Source: Candidatus Thorarchaeota archaeon (lineage in GTDB: Archaea; Asgardarchaeota; Thorarchaeia; Thorarchaeales; Thorarchaeaceae). Taken from it: a stretch of 10,763 bases of DNA. The notes beneath the pieces are model-generated. The model worked only from the letters and a program-made list of their open reading frames with translations, was not told where the DNA came from and did not search any database. The stretch is taken from NCBI GenBank assembly GCA_048882485.1, contig JBHLRP010000082.1, forward strand, positions 1 to 10,763, written 5' to 3'. Both the position numbers and the translations under genes were made by a program. Positions within the stretch are counted from its first letter, which is position 1; every line of letters starts with the position of its first letter. This document shows, piece after piece, positions 160 through 10,763 of this stretch.

Positions 160-182
160 TTCAAATCCCACCTGGCCCGCCA
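160..182 (+). repeat. tRNA 3'-end-like direct repeat, copy 1 (23/23 to consensus)
   Basis: ttcaaatcccacctggcccgcca, followed by a further CCA and a T-rich tract. Confidence 0.95.
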
Positions 183-220
183 CCAATCCATTTTTGCTCA
201 ATTTTGATTACACGGTAAAT

Positions 221-874
221 TTACAGACCCATTGCTATGAGGAATACTAGAAATGGGAGATTCACACAATACATGAAGAAGCTACTTGCTGGATGAGTGG
301 TTGGCGTCCTGCAGACCAACCTGGCGTAGTCTGCAATTTCTTCAGTACTTGAAAAGAGAGCCAATGGCTCAAGTCGATGCCTTACATTTTCGATTCTAAT
401 CTGCTTCAACTCATTTTCTTGTCGCATTCTCCAAAACGATGTGGGCAAAACCATGACTGAAAAAAAGAGAGGGCCTAATACCGATGAGTCTAGTCCTGAT
501 GGAGCGAATGCCACCAAGTAGATTGAGATGACGAGAACAATCAGGGGATACAACCAGGGATAAAAGAAATCGTGCATAAAGTACTCACGATATGATGCAA
601 ACCCTGACCTTGCTTCTATTTGACTTGCAGATGATGCAAGGCAGAGCTTGACGCCTGAGTCTAGATCCGTGTCCCTTAATCGAATCTTTAAGATTCCTTC
701 AGCATCAATGAAATAATCACATGAGCGCTTTCTAAGGGAGTCGACCTCTTCAAACTCAATCTCAACCCCCTGCAGTTTAATATCTTTGTACTCCTCTAGC
801 CCCATCTCACGACTCTTGTTGAGGACCATCTCTTCAGATGCAATCTTTAGTTCTCCATCTGAAAGTGCAGTCAC
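221..874 (-). CDS. hypothetical membrane protein (about 3 TM segments in the C-terminal half)
   Basis: 217-aa ORF filling the interval between repeats 1 and 2; hydrophobic stretches; no family recognised. Confidence 0.7.
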   Translation of the reverse strand: MTALSDGELKIASEEMVLNKSREMGLEEYKDIKLQGVEIEFEEVDSLRKRSCDYFIDAEGILKIRLRDTDLDSGVKLCLASSASQIEARSGFASYREYFMHDFFYPWLYPLIVLVISIYLVAFAPSGLDSSVLGPLFFSVMVLPTSFWRMRQENELKQIRIENVRHRLEPLALFSSTEEIADYARLVCRTPTTHPASSFFMYCVNLPFLVFLIAMGL

Positions 875-957
875 CTCTTACATGCCTCGAATCTGAGTTC
901 TTCAAGCAACCATTTGCCTTAATCAAGATAAACTATAGCAAGGATGTTTTCAGGTGG

Positions 958-980
958 TTCAACCCCTACCTGTCCCACCA
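958..980 (+). repeat. tRNA 3'-end-like repeat, copy 2 (18/23)
   Basis: (gg)ttcaacccctacctgtcccacca in an intergenic gap. Confidence 0.8.
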
Positions 981-1019
981 TCTGATTTTGAGTAGTTCAG
1001 CTTCTTTTGGGGTATGGAA

Positions 1020-1541
1020 TCATTGATACTTGTACAGTCTTGAATCGACCTTTCTCCATATGCCGGTCTGGTTGCTGAAAGCCTTTCTTTCTTCTTCAGT
1101 TGTGGGCAATATATCAAAAGTACAATTCTCATCGCCACAGGCTTCGCACGTCAGATGAATCAGTTTCGTTTCAGGACTCTCTGCCATGCTCTTAGCTGCA
1201 TCCATATAACAATACAAATAGCCCACATCAGACGCATCCTGCTCTTGGAAAACCTTGGCTAGATTACATCCTCTTGCGAAATAACGTCCCTCTTCGTCTT
1301 GGCCTGAGTCATCATAAACACCGAAAGATGGTAGGTCGGGTAGGCTGCTCTGAACTCTTTTTGCTATTCTCTGACCATAGTCAATGATTGCCTTGGCAAC
1401 CAGATCCTTTCCTCTTTCTTCACTTAGCTCCTGAACTATGGTCTTCGAGAAAGCTATGTGAAGCAGAGCTAGCCTCGAAACCAAGCCCTCAACAGCCCGC
1501 TTTGCTTCTTGCATTGATATAGTATTGAATTGCTCATTCAT
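1020..1541 (-). CDS. L-2-amino-thiazoline-4-carboxylic acid hydrolase-like (ATC hydrolase / V4R-like) protein
   Basis: Motif pattern A..YG.RIA, C.LA..F, GYLYC..D.A and C..GD..C.F typical of this family; GGTGG SD-like motif upstream. Confidence 0.7.
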   Translation of the reverse strand: MNEQFNTISMQEAKRAVEGLVSRLALLHIAFSKTIVQELSEERGKDLVAKAIIDYGQRIAKRVQSSLPDLPSFGVYDDSGQDEEGRYFARGCNLAKVFQEQDASDVGYLYCYMDAAKSMAESPETKLIHLTCEACGDENCTFDILPTTEEERKAFSNQTGIWRKVDSRLYKYQ

Positions 1542-1615
1542 TGGTAGCTGCCACCACTTGGGTAAACAAAACAGATGAGAATTCCTGACAATTTATCTGT
1601 CTTATCATCCTAGTA

Positions 1616-1638
1616 TTCAAATCCCACCTGGCCAGCTT
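1616..1638 (+). repeat. tRNA 3'-end-like repeat, copy 3 (20/23)
   Basis: ttcaaatcccacctggccagctt. Confidence 0.92.
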
Positions 1639-1752
1639 TTCCCGCGAGATGCTCCTCGAAGTGCTCAGCTTTGGAGCAAGACTCATTACAGAGTTCCTTT
1701 CATCACTGTATTTCGGAAATAGGGGGAGATCAACCTGTCTATTCCCACCGAA

Positions 1753-2481
1753 GTGATGCTTGTCCTAATGGCGATAACGATTGCAATCTATCTCGTGGTA
1801 ATTCTAGGTATCATTCTAATTGTGCGAAGAATCACTCGTCCTCCAGACCAAGAGCTCTTGGCAGGAGTGTCTGTTCGTGTTGCTGCATTTGGTATCGATT
1901 TTGCAATCATAGCAGTTTTCCATGAGATCCTGCTGTCTGTAATAGCCGGATACCCCCCAGTAATTCTGTTTTCTTTTCTCTATATGGGACCATACGCTAT
2001 TTTTTCATTTCCCATAATGATACTAACCGTCATGTTTTCCTATTTGTTCTTCTTTCTCTATCTTCTCTTTCCATATGGGATAATCTACTTTGGGAGTACA
2101 TTCTATATCATGGCAGTTGGCTTCGGGTATTTTCTCTTACTCGAGTCGCTTACTAGAGGAAAGACAGTGGGTAAGGCAATACTGAGAATCAGAACAGTCA
2201 AACGTGATGGCAAGAATCCAATCTCAGTAAGAGAGGGGGTCATGAACGCGCTTGGGAAATCTGTTCTCTTGTGGGACCTAATAATTGGACTAGTGGCACG
2301 TTCTATGCACGCATCTCGCGCGGAACAAAAGCAAATCCGAGCCACGCAGCAGCTTTCAGATGTGGTTGTGGTAAACACGCGCCTCGATAGCACACAACAA
2401 GTCCAGTTTGAGGGACCAGACTGGTGGAAAGAGCAAGACTCCAAAGAATCGGATATTTGGGAGGATGAGAAAGGTGGTTGA
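1753..2481 (+). CDS. RDD family membrane protein
   Basis: LAGVSVRVAAFGIDFAI (RDD signature R..A..ID) and YFLLLES..G.TVGK.IL.IRTV. Confidence 0.85.
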   Translation: MMLVLMAITIAIYLVVILGIILIVRRITRPPDQELLAGVSVRVAAFGIDFAIIAVFHEILLSVIAGYPPVILFSFLYMGPYAIFSFPIMILTVMFSYLFFFLYLLFPYGIIYFGSTFYIMAVGFGYFLLLESLTRGKTVGKAILRIRTVKRDGKNPISVREGVMNALGKSVLLWDLIIGLVARSMHASRAEQKQIRATQQLSDVVVVNTRLDSTQQVQFEGPDWWKEQDSKESDIWEDEKGG

Positions 2482-2497
2482 AGAACGCGGACCCCGT

Positions 2498-3175
2498 TTG
2501 GGAAATGATACGAGAAGAAGATCATTTCTCCTGACGATGTTTGGAGCCATCCAGTCATTTGTCCTGATACCTATTGCCGCACTATGCTATGCTGGTGGGA
2601 CCGAGTCCAACGCGAGTTCTCCCGGATTTTCAATTACTGAGAATTTTCTGAGCGACTTGGGAATGATCACAGCTTATTCAGGTCAGCCAAACCTCGTCTC
2701 ATCACTTCTCTTCAATATAACATTGTTCTTGCTTGGAGCCCTTCTAATTCTCTATTTTCTTACCATGCCCAACTTCTTCAAAGGGCATAAGGAGGCTAAA
2801 TGGCTTAGTATCGCGGGCTCCGCAACTGGAGTTTTCATGGCTGCTACATTCATAGGGGGAAGTCTTACACCTGCAGATATCTTTCGGCCAATTCATCTCA
2901 TGTTTGGCGCAATGGCATTTGCATCCGCACTTCCTGTGGTGATATTCTATACATTGGCAATTCTCTTGGATAGTGATTATCCCAACTGGAATGCGATTGG
3001 ATTTGCACTTTTGGGAGCTGTTATCCTTGTCTATCTGGTTCTTTTGCTGAATGGGGGAGCGTCAGGTGAAATCGCGATTTACTTCACCCTAGGACAGAAG
3101 ATAGTGGTCTTCTCCATCCTTCTATGTTTCTTGATAGAGGCTTATGGTGCATTGCTAGTCACGAAGGAAAGCTAA
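2498..3175 (+). CDS. DUF998-like multi-pass membrane protein (start uncertain: 2465, 2498 or 2537)
   Basis: FS.TENFLSDLG motif, H...G..AF and terminal GQK motifs, about 6 TM helices; the 2408 start overlaps the RDD gene and is unlikely. Confidence 0.7.
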   Translation: MGNDTRRRSFLLTMFGAIQSFVLIPIAALCYAGGTESNASSPGFSITENFLSDLGMITAYSGQPNLVSSLLFNITLFLLGALLILYFLTMPNFFKGHKEAKWLSIAGSATGVFMAATFIGGSLTPADIFRPIHLMFGAMAFASALPVVIFYTLAILLDSDYPNWNAIGFALLGAVILVYLVLLLNGGASGEIAIYFTLGQKIVVFSILLCFLIEAYGALLVTKES

Positions 3176-3198
3176 CGCAGTCTTTTCGTCACGTGGGC

Positions 3199-3221
3199 TT
3201 GAAATCCCACCTTGCCCGCCA
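3199..3221 (+). repeat. tRNA 3'-end-like repeat, copy 4 (21/23), preceded by GTGGG complementary to CCCAC
   Basis: gtgggc-ttgaaatcccaccttgcccgcca; nearly intact T-arm hairpin. Confidence 0.92.
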
Positions 3222-3225
3222 TATA

Positions 3226-4194
3226 CTACTCAACCCTCCAGGCATAGTATTGCTGAGTGTATTGTTCTTTGAAACCAAACTTTGTGTACAGACCAATTGC
3301 TGGGTTGCTGCTCTTGTCCGCTTCAAGTGTAGCAATTTTGATTCCATCTTCTTGAAGTCGTTTAAATGACTCATGGAGAACCGATTTCATTATTCCTTGT
3401 CTGTGATGTTTTGGAACAACACCGACAGGGCCAAAGTGTGCACTATCCTCGTTCACTCTAACGACATTGAAACCTACCACTTCATCATCTTTCATTACAA
3501 GAATCGTAGATCTATGAAATGGTTGGCTTCTTCTAAACCAATAATTGAATACGGTCTTTTGTTGGGAACTTGTCAAATCCACGAATGCTCTATCTGATTC
3601 TACTGAAAACGAATCTAAGACTGGTGACTCAAGATCATCATTGGTAACATTATCTATGCTTTCGAAACGGAATCCCTCTGGAAGTGAAGGTTGAGCAGAT
3701 GGTAGTTGATGATTCTGTATATCCACCTGCATGAACACCTCTTCAGTTGTTCTGTAAAGACCAGACTTCTCACACCAAGACTTGTACTCCCTGTAAACCT
3801 CTGCATGTTCTTGTTTAATTGGAATAAGGTTCATTTCGAATCTCCTGAATCCGTTTTCCTTAGCGTAGTCCTTGCAGAACTGAATCATTTCCATTGCAAT
3901 TTCTTCTCTTTTATCACCATAATGGATTCTTGGATGCCAATTTCCTGCTAGGACCATTTCTGGAAATCCAGTAAAGATTCTCAATACTCCTACAATTTTC
4001 CCTTTGGCTGTCGCAATCAAAACTAGTGCATTCTCATTATTCACCATTCTCTGGAATGATTGTTCAAGACTCTCTCTTGTTCGATCCTCTCTGTGAAAGA
4101 CTGTATCTTTTGCAGCTTCGAACATGAATGAAGCCAATTTAGGAATATCCACATCTTTGAATTTGCTAATTGTAATTTCGACCATAGGTATCAC
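3226..4194 (-). CDS. tandem-domain GNAT family N-acetyltransferase (start 4194 GTG or 4185 ATG)
   Basis: C-terminal VGVVPKHHRQGIMK acetyl-CoA motif A and N.PAIGLYTKFGF motif B; second GNAT-like domain in the N-terminal half. Confidence 0.9.
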   Translation of the reverse strand: MIPMVEITISKFKDVDIPKLASFMFEAAKDTVFHREDRTRESLEQSFQRMVNNENALVLIATAKGKIVGVLRIFTGFPEMVLAGNWHPRIHYGDKREEIAMEMIQFCKDYAKENGFRRFEMNLIPIKQEHAEVYREYKSWCEKSGLYRTTEEVFMQVDIQNHQLPSAQPSLPEGFRFESIDNVTNDDLESPVLDSFSVESDRAFVDLTSSQQKTVFNYWFRRSQPFHRSTILVMKDDEVVGFNVVRVNEDSAHFGPVGVVPKHHRQGIMKSVLHESFKRLQEDGIKIATLEADKSSNPAIGLYTKFGFKEQYTQQYYAWRVE

Positions 4195-4231
4195 GCTCCT
4201 ACTCGAGTAGGGACTGATTCAATAGACATAG

Positions 4232-4241
4232 GATAACTTTC
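4232..4241 (-). promoter_or_regulatory. putative archaeal BRE/TATA-like element for the GNAT gene
   Basis: GAAAGTTATC on the minus strand about 40 nt upstream of the start; identical decamer upstream of the divergent 4453 gene. Confidence 0.4.
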
Positions 4242-4380
4242 TGAAACTGACTGCACCTAGGTAGATGAATGCAGCTTGAAAAAGTTGGGGTTCACTCACA
4301 ACTTGGAGATAGTATCAAGCCAATGATAGAAGTAACTATATTCCTACGTAATGTCATTGTCTTCAGCATACCATTAGGGG

Positions 4381-4403
4381 TTCGAATCCCACCTGGCCCG
4401 CCA
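4381..4403 (+). repeat. tRNA 3'-end-like repeat, copy 5 (23/23)
   Basis: (gggg)ttcgaatcccacctggcccgcca. Confidence 0.97.
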
Positions 4404-4412
4404 TATACTTCT

Positions 4413-4422
4413 GAAAGTTATC
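4413..4422 (+). promoter_or_regulatory. putative archaeal BRE/TATA-like element for the 4453 gene
   Basis: GAAAGTTATC ending 30 nt before the ATG at 4453. Confidence 0.4.
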
Positions 4423-4452
4423 AATAGACTCCGACGAAATTCTCAAAGCAAT

Positions 4453-5187
4453 ATGATGCATATAGAAACTAGACGCTTGAATGGAGGTTCGCAATTGACC
4501 GGAGACGGTGCAGAGGTTGATGCAGTCCCTGACGAGGTTGCAGCACTAGCCAATCTGTTCCAAGTCTTTGGTGGAGTATTGCTGATTCTTTTCTCTATGT
4601 TGCTTTTCATGACAACCGGTCTCCTGATGAATTGGATAGGAAGGACCTTCTTTGGCGTAGATCTTATACAAGCGCAGTATCCTTCAATATTAGAGATATC
4701 AATCAGCATTGTATTCAGTATCGGTTTGTTCGTTCTGTTTCTAATGGTCATTTTCTGGGCCCTTCCAATCAAGATGCATCAATTGAATGATAGCTTGTTA
4801 CAGGGCACTGGGCTAATTCTTCTTGTTTACCCATTGATGACTGTTAAACAGGTTATTCATTATGATCTGCCCGCAATTTTCACCTTTGGCATAGAAACAC
4901 CCTACTGGTTTGTCTACTCGATTATTGGATTCATTCTGCTTTTGCACCCAATGATGATGAAAAACAATCGTTTGAGGAGAGAGGTTGATTCAATTTTGCT
5001 TGTTTTGCCAGTGGTTCTTAGTATATTGATTGTCATCTTGACTTTTCTACAGATTGCGGAGGTAGTCATTGCTGGGGCGATTTACACGGCTTTTCTAATC
5101 ATCTCCCCCCTCGCTGTGATTTCCTCCACAATCATGCATATTCTACTTCCTGATGAACTTGGTAAGAAGACATTCTCAATGTCCTAA
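4453..5187 (+). CDS. hypothetical multi-pass membrane protein (about 6 TM)
   Basis: 244-aa hydrophobic ORF filling the interval between repeats 5 and 6; the true start may be downstream. Confidence 0.7.
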   Translation: MMHIETRRLNGGSQLTGDGAEVDAVPDEVAALANLFQVFGGVLLILFSMLLFMTTGLLMNWIGRTFFGVDLIQAQYPSILEISISIVFSIGLFVLFLMVIFWALPIKMHQLNDSLLQGTGLILLVYPLMTVKQVIHYDLPAIFTFGIETPYWFVYSIIGFILLLHPMMMKNNRLRREVDSILLVLPVVLSILIVILTFLQIAEVVIAGAIYTAFLIISPLAVISSTIMHILLPDELGKKTFSMS

Positions 5188-5200
5188 AGACCAGATGGAG

Positions 5201-5223
5201 CGAAATTCCCGCCTAGCCCGCCA
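5201..5223 (+). repeat. tRNA 3'-end-like repeat, copy 6 (17/23)
   Basis: cgaaattcccgcctagcccgcca. Confidence 0.8.
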
Positions 5224-5285
5224 TTTCTCTGAATTTTCAGTTTCTCAAGCAACATCTATAGGCTAGTGTGTTTCGAAGTTGGTGC

Positions 5286-5768
5286 ATGAGCCTCTCAATC
5301 AGGAAAGGTCTTAGTTTTGGTCTGACATCTGGAGTCATAACAACACTTGGAATGGTGGTAGGAGTTAATGCGAGCACGAGTTCACGCCTAGCTGTGATCG
5401 CTGGCATTGTTGCGATAGCGATTGCTGATGCATTCTCCGATGCGGTCGCTATGCATGTGTCAGAGGAATCGGAAGGTGGTCATTCCCGACGAGAAGTCAT
5501 GGAGGCAACAACAACAACATTTCTCGCCAAGTTCATATTCGCTATGACATTTGTGCTCCCAATTTGGTACTTGCCACTTGATGTAGCAGTCATGATAGAT
5601 ATTGTCTGGGGACTATCAATTATGACAGTGTTCAATTTTCTGCTAGCACGTTCACAGGATGAAAGCAAATTCAGGGTAATCGTAGAACATTTGGCAATAG
5701 CCATTGTCGTCATTTTGATAACATATATCGTGGGATTATCTCTTTCCACAATTATCTCAGACGCATGA
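5286..5768 (+). CDS. VIT1/CCC1 family transporter-like membrane protein
   Basis: FGLTSGVITTLG..VG and AIAIADAFSDA.AMHVSEES motifs; ATG at 5286 preceded by GGTG. Confidence 0.85.
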   Translation: MSLSIRKGLSFGLTSGVITTLGMVVGVNASTSSRLAVIAGIVAIAIADAFSDAVAMHVSEESEGGHSRREVMEATTTTFLAKFIFAMTFVLPIWYLPLDVAVMIDIVWGLSIMTVFNFLLARSQDESKFRVIVEHLAIAIVVILITYIVGLSLSTIISDA

Positions 5769-5790
5769 AAACCTGTTACCACAAAAACTC

Positions 5791-5813
5791 TTCAAATCCC
5801 ACCTAGCCCGCCA
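5791..5813 (+). repeat. tRNA 3'-end-like repeat, copy 7 (22/23)
   Basis: ttcaaatcccacctagcccgcca. Confidence 0.95.
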
Positions 5814-5827
5814 TCAACTCTCTTTAT

Positions 5828-6481
5828 TCATAAATACCGGCGAACCCGCTTCTTGTATGCACGATAGTCCTCACCAAAACGGTCCTCAAGGAACTTCTCT
5901 TCTAGTAGAATTCTGAAATGTTGATTGACGAGGAATATGACAAGTGCTAGGCCTGTAAGAAGACTCGGGAGAATGAATACCCACCCAATCATCGCAATAT
6001 GTATGCCCAGATAGAGCGGATTTCGAGAGTGAGCATACCACCCATCTGTCATCAGCCTCGTTCCCTCCTCCTCTTCAGGGATGAGCAATCTGATACTGCT
6101 ACCAAGATGGAAGAATGCAGTCAAAAATATCAATGTTCCAATAAACGTCAATCCAGCACCTACAAGCCTCAAGGCCTCCAGTATGCTTGTGTCCAAGGGC
6201 ACCATGATAAAGACAAAGTCGATTGCGATTGCTGGGACCCAGATGTAGAGTACCGTAAGAGCCGTAAGATAGAGAAAACTTAGCAAAGCTAAGGGTATGA
6301 CCACATACCCCCACTTTGGAATATCACTAGGCATTATTCCAACAAAACTCGAAATACCGTCGAGTCTTCTCTTAATTACAATTAATCCAAGGATTGTTGC
6401 GACCAACCAGAATAACGCCAGAGAGATTCTTGCAATCAACGCTCTCCCCAATCTTGGTGGTAGGCCATAGTGCTTATACAT
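5828..6481 (-). CDS. isoprenylcysteine carboxyl methyltransferase / PEMT family membrane protein (probable true start TTG at 6439)
   Basis: L.TDGWYAHSRNPLYLG and RILLEEKFLEDRFGEDYRAYKKRVRRYL signatures; GGGGAG SD before TTG 6439 and TATAAG at 6478-6473. Confidence 0.88.
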   Translation of the reverse strand: MYKHYGLPPRLGRALIARISLALFWLVATILGLIVIKRRLDGISSFVGIMPSDIPKWGYVVIPLALLSFLYLTALTVLYIWVPAIAIDFVFIMVPLDTSILEALRLVGAGLTFIGTLIFLTAFFHLGSSIRLLIPEEEEGTRLMTDGWYAHSRNPLYLGIHIAMIGWVFILPSLLTGLALVIFLVNQHFRILLEEKFLEDRFGEDYRAYKKRVRRYL

Positions 6482-6504
6482 CTAATCATACGCTGTGATC
6501 CAAT

Positions 6505-6527
6505 CTCGAATCTCACTTGGCTCGCCA
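6505..6527 (+). repeat. tRNA 3'-end-like repeat, copy 8 (19/23)
   Basis: ctcgaatctcacttggctcgcca; all mismatches are transitions. Confidence 0.85.
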
Positions 6528-6550
6528 TTCTACTTTGAGCTATGCAGGGC

Positions 6551-7117
6551 TCAAAAACTGTCATTCAAAGGATGGTCATATTTCTCCAAAAACTCTGTCC
6601 TTAGAATGTCCATGATGACAACGTCATGTCGTTCCCCATCGCGGCATCCCAGCTCACGCAGTCTGCCCTGTGACTTGAACCCGATATTCTCATAGAAGCT
6701 GATTGCCCCCTTATTGAATGCTTCAACCCACAGGTAGACACTATGAAGTTCCAACACTGAGAAGGCCATGTTTAGCAAGACCTTCAATGCATCTGCTCCA
6801 TATCCTCTGCCTCTGCGCTCTAAATCAAAGATCGCAAAATGACCAATCTCGCCAAATCGACTAATCCAACTGATGCTTGCAAGACTTATGACTCCTATCA
6901 GCTGATTATCTTCTAGAGTTTCAATCCCAAATGTTATCATGCTGCTATTTTCAAACGCCTCGTTTATACTCTCGATATACCTGACCATGTCTTCGTTGCT
7001 CATAGGAAGGGAAATGGGCAGATACCTATCCAAATCGTAGACATTCCAGTGGGGTAGGATTGTGGGCGCATCGCTCGGATTTAGTTTCCGGAGTCGCACC
7101 ACTTTTCCTTGATACAT
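6551..7117 (-). CDS. RimJ/RimL-type GNAT N-acetyltransferase
   Basis: G..V.LR.L N-terminus; RRGRGYGADAL, N.GAISFYENIGFKSQGRLRE and G.RHDVVIMDILR.EF motifs. Confidence 0.92.
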   Translation of the reverse strand: MYQGKVVRLRKLNPSDAPTILPHWNVYDLDRYLPISLPMSNEDMVRYIESINEAFENSSMITFGIETLEDNQLIGVISLASISWISRFGEIGHFAIFDLERRGRGYGADALKVLLNMAFSVLELHSVYLWVEAFNKGAISFYENIGFKSQGRLRELGCRDGERHDVVIMDILRTEFLEKYDHPLNDSF

Positions 7118-7143
7118 GCGCTATCGCATATACTTCCTAGTGA

Positions 7144-7153
7144 ACGTATTTAA
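7144..7153 (-). promoter_or_regulatory. putative TATA box (TTAAATACGT)
   Basis: About 30 nt upstream of ATG 7117; identical decamer at 8083-8074 upstream of the 8030 gene. Confidence 0.5.
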
Positions 7154-7192
7154 TGGTTATGAATCATGATTCTTAATCATTCAGACTGGCCG

Positions 7193-7215
7193 TCCGAATT
7201 CCAATTGGCCCGCAA
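7193..7215 (+). repeat. tRNA 3'-end-like repeat, copy 9 (18/23)
   Basis: tccgaattccaattggcccgcaa. Confidence 0.8.
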
Positions 7216-7225
7216 TCTAATTCTC

Positions 7226-7606
7226 TCAGGTCTGGTTCTGTGCCAAGAATGAAGAAACATCCACTTGGGAGGGATCCTCTATCTTTAGTAGAGCCATGAG
7301 GAGACTATGAACGAATATCTCACTCATCCCAAATGTTGGGCATATTACGAAGACCTCAGAGCCTTCAAGATTTGAATCAATCCAGAACATAGCTGTCAAT
7401 AATAGAGGCTCTGGTTTAAACAGCAGCTCCCACTCCCATATTATTAGATGCCTACCATCTATACGACGATTGACCTTGGATTTCATTGTAAGTCGTGAAT
7501 TCCATGATCGGCCTCTGACTTTATTCCAATGAATTGGAACACTGACAAGGTTCCGGTCAATTTGATCCAAATCGACGTCTTTGAGTGTAAGTGATATCAT
7601 ACGCAA
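7226..7606 (-). CDS. hypothetical protein (ATG 7600 is an alternative start)
   Basis: 126-aa ORF fitting neatly between repeats 9 and 10; no family recognised. Confidence 0.55.
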   Translation of the reverse strand: MRMISLTLKDVDLDQIDRNLVSVPIHWNKVRGRSWNSRLTMKSKVNRRIDGRHLIIWEWELLFKPEPLLLTAMFWIDSNLEGSEVFVICPTFGMSEIFVHSLLMALLKIEDPSQVDVSSFLAQNQT

Positions 7607-7661
7607 ATTGGAGTCAGACTATGCAGAGATAAGGGTTAGCACGAACATCACCTTGATACGG

Positions 7662-7684
7662 TTCGAATCCCACCTGGCCCGCCA
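7662..7684 (+). repeat. tRNA 3'-end-like repeat, copy 10 (23/23)
   Basis: (gg)ttcgaatcccacctggcccgcca. Confidence 0.97.
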
Positions 7685-7802
7685 ACTTCTTCTAATTATG
7701 CCTCATCTAGCAAAAAGAGATAGGGAGTTTCCCAAAGATGCTCCCTTTATCGAATTGTACTTCAAAAATGCTCAGAACAATCAATCTTGGCTGGGCTGGA
7801 AT

Positions 7803-8030
7803 CTAGTCCGCATTACGCATCGTGGTGTAGGCATCGATGATACGCCACAATCCATGCACAACTACGAACGCTAGCACACTCCATGTTATCATATTCGCAT
7901 AAGTGCTTGTTGTAAATAGTGTGCCACCAATTTCGTATATGTATGGAATCACAGCAAAAATCAGGATAATTTCCAAAATTCCCATGATTAGTTGACCTAC
8001 AAAACGTGGTTTTGCTACTCCTTTCTTCAT
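7803..8030 (-). CDS. small two-TM membrane protein
   Basis: 75 aa with two hydrophobic helices; strong SD GGGGAGGT (8048-8041) and TATA-like box upstream. Confidence 0.75.
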   Translation of the reverse strand: MKKGVAKPRFVGQLIMGILEIILIFAVIPYIYEIGGTLFTTSTYANMITWSVLAFVVVHGLWRIIDAYTTMRNAD

Positions 8031-8073
8031 TTTTCCGAAGACCTCCCCTTAGGGTGTGTATTCGTTCATTAAC

Positions 8074-8083
8074 ACGTATTTAA
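8074..8083 (-). promoter_or_regulatory. putative TATA box (TTAAATACGT)
   Basis: Upstream of the SD and ATG of the 8030 gene; same decamer as 7153-7144. Confidence 0.5.
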
Positions 8084-8110
8084 CTGGTATCTCTGCTTTG
8101 ACTATTTGCT

Positions 8111-8133
8111 CAAAAATCCTACCTAGCCCTCCA
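8111..8133 (+). repeat. tRNA 3'-end-like repeat, copy 11 (17/23)
   Basis: caaaaatcctacctagccctcca. Confidence 0.75.
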
Positions 8134-8240
8134 TCAAATCTCGATTCTCATAGATACGATTTCAATAATCAAACTAGACACCATTCTGTTTGAATCCCCT
8201 TTCTACTCCTAGAATTCGAGTATCAATCTGGCTGGCCATC

Positions 8241-9215
8241 TTATTTGGGAATCTTGCTTAGCCTTAAGATTACTTCTTCGGCCTCACTCATCACTCTGTC
8301 CAGCAGTTCCTTGACCGTGGGAATATCCTTGACCAGGCCTACACCTTGACCACAGGCGACAACCCCATGGTCGATATCCCCTTCTCTGTACATTTCCTCT
8401 GATTTGTCACCAGATGCAGCCTGAATGAGTTGGAAAAGAGGGGCTCCCTGCGCCTCTAGTTCAAGCACTTTCTGTACTGCTTTATTCTTCCAGAACCTGT
8501 GTGTATTTCCAACAGAACGCAAGGCGAGAGTTGTATCGGTTTCCGCTGCTTCGACGAAGGCCTTTTTGAGATTGTCATGGATGGGACACTCTCTAGTAGC
8601 CAACAGTCTTGTGCCCATAATCACTCCTTCAGCACCAAGTGCCAGAGCCGCTGCGATACCTCTTCCATCTGTTATTCCGCCCCCAGCAATTACAGGAACA
8701 TCCAGGGCATCAACGACGGATGGAGTCATCACCATTGTTCCAATGTCTAGAATCCCAGTAGCTCCACCATTCTCATATCCAACAACGGTCACTATGTCGG
8801 CACCCAAGGACGCTCCTTTCTTCGCATATCTCACTCCGGCGCACTTATGAATCCAGATGGCACCTCCATCCCTAAATTTGGGGACCAAGTCCTCTGGCGC
8901 CTTATGGCCGCTCGTTTCAATGATTTTCACACCCTCAGCTAGTGTGGCATCCACGTAGTCCTCCAGCTTGTCCTGAGGCATCAGAGCAGGAAACAGATTG
9001 ATGTTCACCGCAAATGGGCGATCTGTAAGAGATTGGGTCTTTTTGATAGCATCACGCAGGTCATCAGGTGTCTTGAAGTTCGCACTGGCTAAAACTGCAC
9101 AGGCACCAGCATTACTTGCTGCGGCGGTGAATTCGGGACTAGAAATCCTTGCCATGGTCCCTGCTATGATTGGATACTTACACCCCAACATCTCAGTTAC
9201 TTTCGTCTTTATCAT
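8241..9215 (-). CDS. nitronate monooxygenase / enoyl-ACP reductase FabK-like flavoprotein
   Basis: KT..TEMLG.KYPII.G.M, AASNAG, T.RPFAVN, G.E.GG, PVIAGGGITDGRGIAAALALGAEGVIMGTR and CGQGVGLVKDIPTVKEL; SD GGGTGAGG at 9227-9220. Confidence 0.93.
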   Translation of the reverse strand: MIKTKVTEMLGCKYPIIAGTMARISSPEFTAAASNAGACAVLASANFKTPDDLRDAIKKTQSLTDRPFAVNINLFPALMPQDKLEDYVDATLAEGVKIIETSGHKAPEDLVPKFRDGGAIWIHKCAGVRYAKKGASLGADIVTVVGYENGGATGILDIGTMVMTPSVVDALDVPVIAGGGITDGRGIAAALALGAEGVIMGTRLLATRECPIHDNLKKAFVEAAETDTTLALRSVGNTHRFWKNKAVQKVLELEAQGAPLFQLIQAASGDKSEEMYREGDIDHGVVACGQGVGLVKDIPTVKELLDRVMSEAEEVILRLSKIPK

Positions 9216-9317
9216 TTGGCCTCACCCACAAATCCTTCGACCAGTGACAATATTCCCATAGATAAATCTCATCATCAGATAGAACAATCACAACGAAGTT
9301 TGACCGCCATCGTTTAG

Positions 9318-9340
9318 TTCGAATCTCACTCAGCCCGTCA
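9318..9340 (+). repeat. tRNA 3'-end-like repeat, copy 12 (18/23)
   Basis: (g)ttcgaatctcactcagcccgtca. Confidence 0.82.
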
Positions 9341-9350
9341 ACCTTGTTTT

Positions 9351-9851
9351 CTACTCTCTATTGAAAAGGTACCTTAGCGTAGCTACTCGATGTCGTAGCT
9401 TTGATAGCAACACGTACGTGTACGGTACTACCAGAGCTTCCACTTCTTCAGAATATTCAATGTCTTCATAATCACTACTACCTTTAGCTGGTTTCTGATT
9501 TCGGGTGTTACATCCCCTAGCTATTCCCTTCAAACTGAGAAAGATGGTCTGAGTTTCTTCTATTTGAGAGGGGGCATCATGACTATTACGACAGAATACA
9601 AGAACATCAAAGATGGAGAGCCCAAGGTAGACTTCTGTTATACACATCAAATCAAAACCCAAAGTGATTGCTGATGCAATCATGAATGGGAGAAGAGATA
9701 CTATGAAAAGCTGATGTCTAATAATGGGATGCCTATTCTTCTCAAAATGTTCAGCTGAGTGATCACGAGGCCAATCAGATACTCCCACATCTGTGATATC
9801 CAACCAATCTAGCGCCTGCGAGCCATAGTTTCGATTCTTTCTGGCCATCAA
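9351..9851 (-). CDS. hypothetical membrane protein, possibly decaying or frameshifted
   Basis: 166-aa ORF filling the interval between repeats 12 and 13; one or two hydrophobic segments; central part looks less protein-like. Confidence 0.45.
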   Translation of the reverse strand: MMARKNRNYGSQALDWLDITDVGVSDWPRDHSAEHFEKNRHPIIRHQLFIVSLLPFMIASAITLGFDLMCITEVYLGLSIFDVLVFCRNSHDAPSQIEETQTIFLSLKGIARGCNTRNQKPAKGSSDYEDIEYSEEVEALVVPYTYVLLSKLRHRVATLRYLFNRE

Positions 9852-9946
9852 CGGTGATCAAATCCTTGTTCTCAGGATTGATTCTTGGTGACACTCCAGC
9901 CATAAATTGCATCATAGTTCAACTAATGAACTAGTAACAGTATTTT

Positions 9947-9969
9947 TTCGAATCCTGCCCCGTGTGTCA
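9947..9969 (+). repeat. tRNA 3'-end-like repeat, copy 13 (15/23, highly degenerate)
   Basis: ttcgaatcctgccccgtgtgtca; lies in the expected intergenic position, last 3 nt overlap the nfi stop codon. Confidence 0.55.
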
Positions 9970-10608
9970 ATCCTGCCCTCTCAATGCTAAGCTTTTCGCA
10001 GTTCTATGAGCAATGCGAAGAGGTTCAGGATATCCATCAACATAGCAATCTTTCACAATCTTCACAGAAGTAGAGAGCGTGATGTTATTCCCCACCGATA
10101 CGAACACAGGCTTCACTTTTCCCAGCCAGACAGCCATGCCTATAAGTTCATCTTCGTCGCGGATGGTGGCCTCATCACCATCGCGAAGGCCCATGGTACC
10201 AATATGAAGGCTCTTTGCAACGCCAATAGTCTGAGTATTCGAAACCACGCCAACATACGATGCCAGACCTAGTCTTCTGGGATGAAGCACTCCATTTCCG
10301 TCGATAAGCACAGGTCCTGTGACATCCAAGAGTTTCAGAAGGTCAAGTACGATGGGCCCTTCTCGAAGATAGAGATATCCTGGGATGTAGTCAAACTGCA
10401 CTTCTCTATCCAAGGTCACAGTTTGAACTGGCCTCAGTGTTTCAACGTCTATTACAACTGCACACCCAAATGCGAGAAAGCCATGATAGTGTACATCCAC
10501 TCCTGTCACTATGCCCCTATCGTAGGGCGGCAAGTCTTTCTTGACAACCCGTTTTGCAAGATCTACTTGTTCTCTGGACGCATTTTTCAGCTTCGTTTGA
10601 TTATCCAT
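9967..10608 (-). CDS. nfi: endonuclease V (deoxyinosine 3'-endonuclease); ATG 10608 preferred over TTG 10662
   Basis: GVDV.Y, YIPGYLYLREGP, VLIDGNGVLHPRRLGLASYVG, TIGVAKS, PVFVSVG and PEPLRIAH motifs with the catalytic D/E/D/H residues present. Confidence 0.95.
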   Translation of the reverse strand: MDNQTKLKNASREQVDLAKRVVKKDLPPYDRGIVTGVDVHYHGFLAFGCAVVIDVETLRPVQTVTLDREVQFDYIPGYLYLREGPIVLDLLKLLDVTGPVLIDGNGVLHPRRLGLASYVGVVSNTQTIGVAKSLHIGTMGLRDGDEATIRDEDELIGMAVWLGKVKPVFVSVGNNITLSTSVKIVKDCYVDGYPEPLRIAHRTAKSLALRGQD

Positions 10609-10763
10609 AATGTATGATTCCACAAGGGGGTCATTTCGGAACCTGATGAACCTGCTGTTCAATCAAATTGACGACTAATAGGAGGACACAATCCAGTCAT
10701 CCTGTGGGACTAGGGACGTACCCTCTGTGTAATCTGTGTGATATACCCCTCCTTGTACATCAC

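Follow-up and report, generated by a model that had tools for sequence, protein, structure and literature searches.

How a row of small, unrelated genes comes to be separated by copies of one and the same tRNA tail is the question raised by a 10,763-nt contig of a Candidatus Thorarchaeota archaeon (JBHLRP010000082.1, here C82), which was analyzed over its whole length and is referred to below as the window. The contig belongs to a metagenome-assembled genome (MAG) of 3.96 Mb that is 90.5% complete; C-numbers denote contigs of this host genome and L-numbers denote loci in relatives or in the host. Along the window, a 23-nt direct repeat recurs between successive gene cassettes. This array is real, mobile, and lineage-wide: it is built mostly of one-gene units with their own flanks, which are joined within the 23-nt tails, reordered, and moved between genera.

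A consensus scan of the window detected 12 copies of the repeat at 0–6 mismatches, all on the + strand and all between long open reading frames (ORFs), compared with 0.015 sites at up to 6 mismatches in shuffled windows. The minus strand contained no copy at up to 8 mismatches. Spacing between repeats was 449–1583 nt, and each unit held one long ORF, with the exception of unit 1616–3199, which held two. Together with the ORF list, the scan confirmed the layout described in an earlier, sequence-only reading of this DNA. That reading had counted 13 repeats, of which 12 stood; the copy at 9947 is doubtful, with 8 mismatches, a level expected 0.86 times per shuffled window, and a score of 9.6 bits where the others reach 22–40 bits, and may represent a decayed repeat that is not significant alone. 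Contig C103, which overlaps the start of the window, contributed two further copies (starts 4876 and 5481) around a GNAT and an S-adenosylmethionine (SAM)-methyltransferase cassette. Contigs C144, C103, C82, and C106 are joined by exact 77-nt overlaps, and about 14 small modules, nearly all single-gene, lie in a row. As the earlier reading had implied, the repeat was not scattered over the genome: close matches were confined to C82, C103, and the ends of other tRNA genes, and a repeat-like match on C144 was discarded because it lay inside an ORF. Since the copies were not dispersed in both orientations and formed no hairpin, an interpretation as repetitive extragenic palindromic (REP) or miniature inverted-repeat transposable (MITE) elements was rejected. 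These results confirmed that the repeat array is real.

The proposed origin of the repeat in a tRNA 3′ end was borne out by an exact match to the last 23 nt (T54–A76) of tRNA-Lys(CTT). No tRNA and no Rfam family were found inside the window. The tRNA gene was located on C103 (c1175-1281; Rfam, 58 bits), about 3.6 kb before the first repeat and inverted, whereas an intact + strand gene immediately to the left of the array had been expected. ARAGORN mislabeled this tRNA because of its intron; the anticodon, as read by hand from the C103 sequence, is CTT (Lys). In relatives, the usual order is the SHMT region, tRNA-Lys, repeat-bounded cassettes, older cassettes that lack repeats, and core genes; about 15 genomes or contigs have the tRNA at the head of the array, and a similar number have it inverted. 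Alleles of tRNA-Lys(CTT) (L011-L110, L037, L039) carried either no intron or up to four (D loop, anticodon arm, variable loop, 53/54, and T loop).

Comparison of related loci showed that, as predicted, relatives differ by gain, loss, and reordering of cassettes, with breakpoints inside the repeats. Among 80 intervals between repeats (median 914 nt), one gene was present in 59 and two in 14, and the orientation of cassette genes was mixed (59 antisense, 42 sense). Both gene orders were found for 47 of the 129 gene pairs seen in at least three loci, an upper figure, as some gene clusters include paralogues. Of the alignment starts, 17% fell between −10 and +30 relative to a repeat start, as did 22% of the alignment ends, compared with a background of 4.7%; the peaks lay at the first and the last base of the repeat. 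Sequence to the left of a repeat moved with the preceding gene and sequence to its right with the following gene. Locus L045 fuses the sequence left of repeat 958 to the core of repeat 5201 and its right flank, and therefore lacks the four units between them; joints fell in degenerate repeat copies, too. A methyltransferase cassette was 95% and 97% identical to copies from another genus, in which core genes are 64–76% identical (L084), and only 69% identical to a copy from the same genus; its matches in L041 and L069 span repeat to repeat. These identities and repeat-bounded matches support a recent transfer of single units. Toward the distal end the repeats fade, with only weak decay along the array (rho −0.50, p 0.07). 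The inverted tRNA, this weak decay, and differences among internal cassettes indicated that purely serial insertion at the tRNA, as first proposed, is too simple. In the assembled contigs, one run passed from 3186 straight to 4378, skipping the GNAT cassette, and numerous loose contig ends sat at repeats; at 90% likeness, a relative or other repeat copies may account for both. No convincing circle joint was found in these contigs, and a back-joint from 5821 to 5286 was better explained by the VIT1 cassette of a relative than by a circle.

The same layout was present at other anchors. In the host genome, 3′ duplicates were found behind at least nine other tRNAs, including those for Ala, Leu, Tyr, Phe, Arg, Pro, and Ser, and a 5S rRNA end was also duplicated (L190, on C14). 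Gene rows bounded by repeats of 20–75 nt occurred at non-tRNA anchors (L183, C6:68762-72278; L182, C15; L184, C85; L185, C92; L186, C141), of which those on C15, C85, C92, and C141 gave no Rfam match. Longer duplications started at the anticodon (L037, tRNA-Tyr). A tRNA-Ala 3′-end array comprised at least six copies at L034:1373-11145 (C71) and three more on C132 (L035). The cassette at 1137-2227 of L065 has a 71% identical relative at C26:42716-43178, between tRNA-Asp-like ends, so gene families can occupy different anchors. A 50-nt direct repeat on C96 (L188:2364-2440 and 6345-6420) resembled a hammerhead-ribozyme core by eye and had no Rfam match.

At the joints, conservation climbed steeply at T54 and the bases preceding it were only partly G-rich, as scored with a matrix that itself favors positions 0–22. 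T54 is also the position at which the 53/54 intron of many tRNA alleles ends. About 6% of the repeats retained clear upstream tRNA or intron remnants, compared with 0.2% in controls. Near-identical methyltransferase cassettes were located directly behind differing tRNA alleles (different T-stems, a T-loop intron), and every T-stem was still paired. The repeat after the first cassette differed from the tRNA before it in L217 and L293, and intron-type repeat starts traveled with particular cassettes. Agreement at tRNA position 64 was 0.70 within genomes and 0.33 and 0.41 among repeats sharing a neighbor gene, relative to a baseline of 0.36 (pairs not independent). This pattern argues against a single fixed T-loop crossover that imports a foreign 3′ end, and it fits variable crossovers.

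A search of the host genome for enzymes yielded no tyrosine recombinase, serine recombinase, or IS110 match (PF00589, PF16795, PF07508, PF00239, and PF02371), and neither Cas1 (PF01867) nor a reverse transcriptase (PF00078) was found; a reverse-transcriptase route was consequently dropped. The sole trace of an integrase was a frameshifted N-terminus on C13. A profile of 20 integrases from the family recovered this broken N-terminus and weak matches to unrelated ORFs. No integrase was adjacent to the array, in agreement with the sequence-only reading, and no integrase family occurred in the array units scanned. A MAG can miss mobile elements, and the failed search is therefore not proof of absence. 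PF00589 was detected in 29 of 86 genomes of the host family and in 44 of 49 Asgard genomes of other families (at least 90% complete), so the host family seems to be without a core XerA. A tRNA was present near (up to about 10 kb on each side) one of 20 integrase loci of the host family, and it was a tRNA-Ser. At L176:9519-10535, a tyrosine integrase ORF overlaps tRNA-Ser(GCT) at 10387-10474, like split integrases of the SSV type. IMG/VR contained no exact match to the repeat and no relative of the VIT1 cassette. RadA was present in the host genome.

Tentatively, we favor exchange by host recombination, with the short tRNA tail as homology. DNA from other Thorarchaeota would enter the cell, and host recombination or repair would insert, remove, or replace cassettes; the tail would provide a short stretch of homology on one side, and in many cases a long anchor, such as the tRNA, core genes, or a shared cassette, would lie on the other. 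From T54 onward, the tail lies 3′ of the variable introns and is nearly the sole block common to all alleles, which may explain the length of the repeat. Because any repeat can serve as a joint, the array can keep changing after inversion of the tRNA. Classical integrating elements may seed repeats onto cassettes. This reading draws on the failure to find a recombinase in the genome, the lower frequency of PF00589 in the host family than in other Asgard families, the many anchors, the near-identical cassettes behind different tRNA alleles, position 64, the upstream remnants, the joints in degenerate copies, and the presence of RadA. It is conceivable, although doubtful, that these arrays belong to a lineage-wide, integrase-free cassette system in which short ends of essential genes (tRNAs, 5S rRNA, and other anchors) act as joints and single genes pass across genera via host repair or an unrecognized, homology-guided recombinase. 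Several points weigh against host recombination. The sharp edge at T54 resembles a T-loop or junction integrase site, and a crossover at the T-stem/acceptor junction combined with selection for a working tRNA could also produce the position-64 pattern, for which pair counts are not independent. Neither a Rad52-type annealer nor ComEC was found in the host genome. Finally, a mismatched stretch of 23 nt offers little length for exchange of the RadA type.

A tyrosine integrase acting in trans, as the earlier reading had suggested, is a possible but questionable source of the joints. Cassettes would then be small circles with one att site, and the enzyme, supplied by a passing virus or island or of relaxed specificity, would cross over at the T loop or the T-stem/acceptor junction. 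Integrase subsites in the T loop and at the junction are known (PMC4383910), and some archaeal integrases recombine at low sequence specificity (PMC8371274). Such an enzyme would be consistent with the sharp left edge at T54, the partial G-rich left arm, the way in which the left flank and first bases of the repeat follow the upstream gene and the right flank the downstream gene, and the duplications that start at the anticodon; moreover, mobile elements are frequently missing from MAGs. However, no intact integrase was found in the genome, the one family integrase locus with a tRNA nearby involved tRNA-Ser, no exact match to the repeat was present in IMG/VR, many unrelated anchors would require many enzymes, and cassettes stand behind alleles in which an intron splits the T loop. 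With no integrase in the genome, a single tRNA-associated locus among 20, and the same layout at unrelated anchors, action in trans is not supported so far.

Alternatively, the arrays might be passive remains of large integrase-bearing islands that accumulated in tandem at the tRNA and were each trimmed down to a single gene, with deletion between repeats generating the differences between genomes. This account matches the island model of tycheposons (10.1101/2020.12.28.424599), and larger islands at tRNA-Lys in relatives (a HerA-like ATPase region) and the distal fading of the repeats are in line with it. However, the existence of both orders for 47 of the 129 gene pairs cannot result from deletion alone, the 95–97% identical cassette that crosses genera is bounded exactly by repeats, and single genes fill 59 of 80 intervals with no integrase family in the scanned units; passive remains are unlikely and, as the sole cause, already weakened. 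Duplication of a 23-nt host target at each insertion, in CRISPR-like fashion, by a Cas1/casposase-like or unknown integrase would agree with position 64 following the host and with both repeat edges being sharp, but is highly improbable given that no Cas1 was found in the genome, that the cassette ends listed lack terminal inverted repeats, that the repeats behind the first cassettes of L217 and L293 are unlike the preceding tRNA, and that intron-type starts travel with particular cassettes.

The window opens (1–159, −) within the SAM-methyltransferase cassette, covering its 5′ end and upstream region; the cassette continues on C103 (5481 to 160). The first repeat (160–182) is an exact copy of T54–A76 and precedes a 217-aa protein without family (221–874, −) that is present in five loci and matches L045 repeat to repeat. 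Repeat 958–980 (5 mismatches) is followed by an ATC-hydrolase-like gene (PF14196; 1020–1541, −), and repeat 1616–1638 (3 mismatches), which has lost its CCA end, by a two-gene cassette for RDD-like (1753–2481, +; below the Pfam cut-off) and Frag1-like (2408–3175, +; below the cut-off, start uncertain) membrane proteins, a pair also present in L079. Next are repeat 3199–3221 (2 mismatches) with a 322-aa GNAT acetyltransferase (3226–4194, −), the exact repeat 4381–4403 with a hydrophobic protein of 244 aa without family (4453–5187, +), and repeat 5201–5223 (6 mismatches) with a VIT1-family gene (5268–5768, +) that matches L045 repeat to repeat. A PEMT/ICMT-like membrane methyltransferase (5828–6481, −) is located behind repeat 5791–5813 (1 mismatch), and a second GNAT acetyltransferase (PF13302; 6551–7117, −), with a repeat-to-repeat match to L053, behind repeat 6505–6527 (4 mismatches). 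Repeat 7193–7215 (5 mismatches) introduces a 126-aa protein without family (7226–7606, −) that is missing here in the close relatives L051 and L053, and the exact repeat 7662–7684 a hydrophobic protein of 75 aa (7803–8030, −) from a cluster of 12 members. The start of repeat 8111–8133 (6 mismatches) resembles tRNA alleles with a T-loop intron; its cassette encodes a nitronate monooxygenase family protein (PF03060; 8241–9215, −). Repeat 9318–9340 (5 mismatches) is followed by a 166-aa protein without family (9351–9851, −), missing here in L051 and L052. In total, the cassette contents are unrelated and include five ORFs without family. Beyond the possible decayed repeat (9947–9969), an Endonuclease V gene (9967–10662, −) begins a distal variable region without clear repeats.

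In at least 10 relatives, a TnpB-like gene and tRNA-Lys are arranged tail to tail, with about 100 nt between the end of the gene and the 3′ end of the tRNA (L192:1501-3648, L193, L194, L079, L110, L316-L322, L330, L222, and L224). The TnpB/Cas12f-like protein of about 716 aa shows a RuvC D-E-D motif by alignment, has matches in 44 of 86 genomes of the host family, and has a divergent partner of about 1800 aa. Wherever an array is in view, the tRNA-Lys(CTT) beside this gene is inverted relative to it. An 18-nt copy of the tRNA-Lys 5′ end directly follows the end of the element, in guide position, and is nearer to the common tRNA-Lys allele than to the linked tRNA (4–6 mismatches). From this arrangement we infer that the element and a resistant tRNA may possibly constitute RNA-guided homing. 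The host genome retains a possible end of such an element without the 18-nt copy, and its tRNA inversion may therefore be a relic. On C103, a 2.7-kb insert (L031:1288-4050) encoding a 493-aa unknown protein and a protein kinase is bounded by a duplicated segment that comprises the promoter, the leader, and the first 11 nt of tRNA-Lys; this is a 5′-anchored form of the array layout. Two relatives carry a larger island, encoding a HerA-like ATPase, downstream of the inverted tRNA (L037:773-7308, L038:4895-9130).

Among known systems, the array belongs with the tRNA-anchored additive islands, of which it represents a minimal form without an integrase. The additive flexible islands of Alteromonas share a fixed location, cassettes that vary in number and order, repeats derived from part of a tRNA, and sharing across species (PMC4898812). 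In contrast, the units described here are mostly single genes, with a repeat at nearly every joint and up to 14–15 in a row; moreover, no integrase was found, the host is an archaeon, and the tRNA can be inverted away from the array. The earlier suggestion that no named system with this architecture was known was thus overstated, although the islands described in that work do not have one-gene, integrase-free units. Islander tandems (PMC4383910) and tycheposons also have displaced tRNA 3′ fragments at their ends and growth and variability that peak near the tRNA, but these elements carry their own integrase and exceed 2 kb, whereas the present units are 0.45–1.6 kb and integrase-free. Four tandems of three or more elements were reported for Islander in total (PMC4383910). 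About 15 relatives have an intact tRNA followed by displaced 3′ fragments that point the same way; the host genome and about as many others, in which the tRNA is inverted, do not. Integrons and clusters of attC sites lacking integron-integrases (CALINs), including archaeal ones (PMC9668308), likewise comprise mobile one-gene cassettes in variable order, with sites more alike within than between genomes. The array works like an integron, as had been proposed, but does not belong to that class: it has no IntI, attI, or attC hairpin, its sites are tRNA tails, and its genes face both ways instead of one. Eight repeat regions folded no better than shuffles (z −0.5 to 1.5; folding only, no attC covariance model), and an attC interpretation was rejected. 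CRISPR arrays and casposons share the repeat-unit-repeat layout, and casposons target tRNA 3′ ends; here, by contrast, no Cas1 was found, units are whole genes, their order is shuffled, and they cross genera. Repeat-mediated deletion and deletion-coupled insertion in Haloquadratum (PMC3119063) also represent archaeal gain and loss at short direct repeats with no known enzyme, but those events are scattered and single, whereas persistent arrays with a shared cassette pool occur here. Aloposons (PMC8813620) do not match the array, and no account of it was found in the parts searched of the Asgard mobile-element literature (PMC8813620, PMC11529989). The main text of the archaeal integron paper (PMC9668308) mentions neither tRNA nor Thorarchaeota, and no description of such arrays was found in the literature searched, coverage of which was incomplete.

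Island finders that require an integrase and more than 2 kb (PMC4383910) would overlook these arrays. If host recombination is responsible, a homology of 23 nt suffices for these cells to exchange genes routinely; if an enzyme is responsible, a tRNA-tail recombinase that serves many anchors has been missed by current profiles. For the question of how Asgard archaea acquire so many foreign genes, this locus offers a concrete route with exact joints, named cassettes and repeats, and young transfers across genera.

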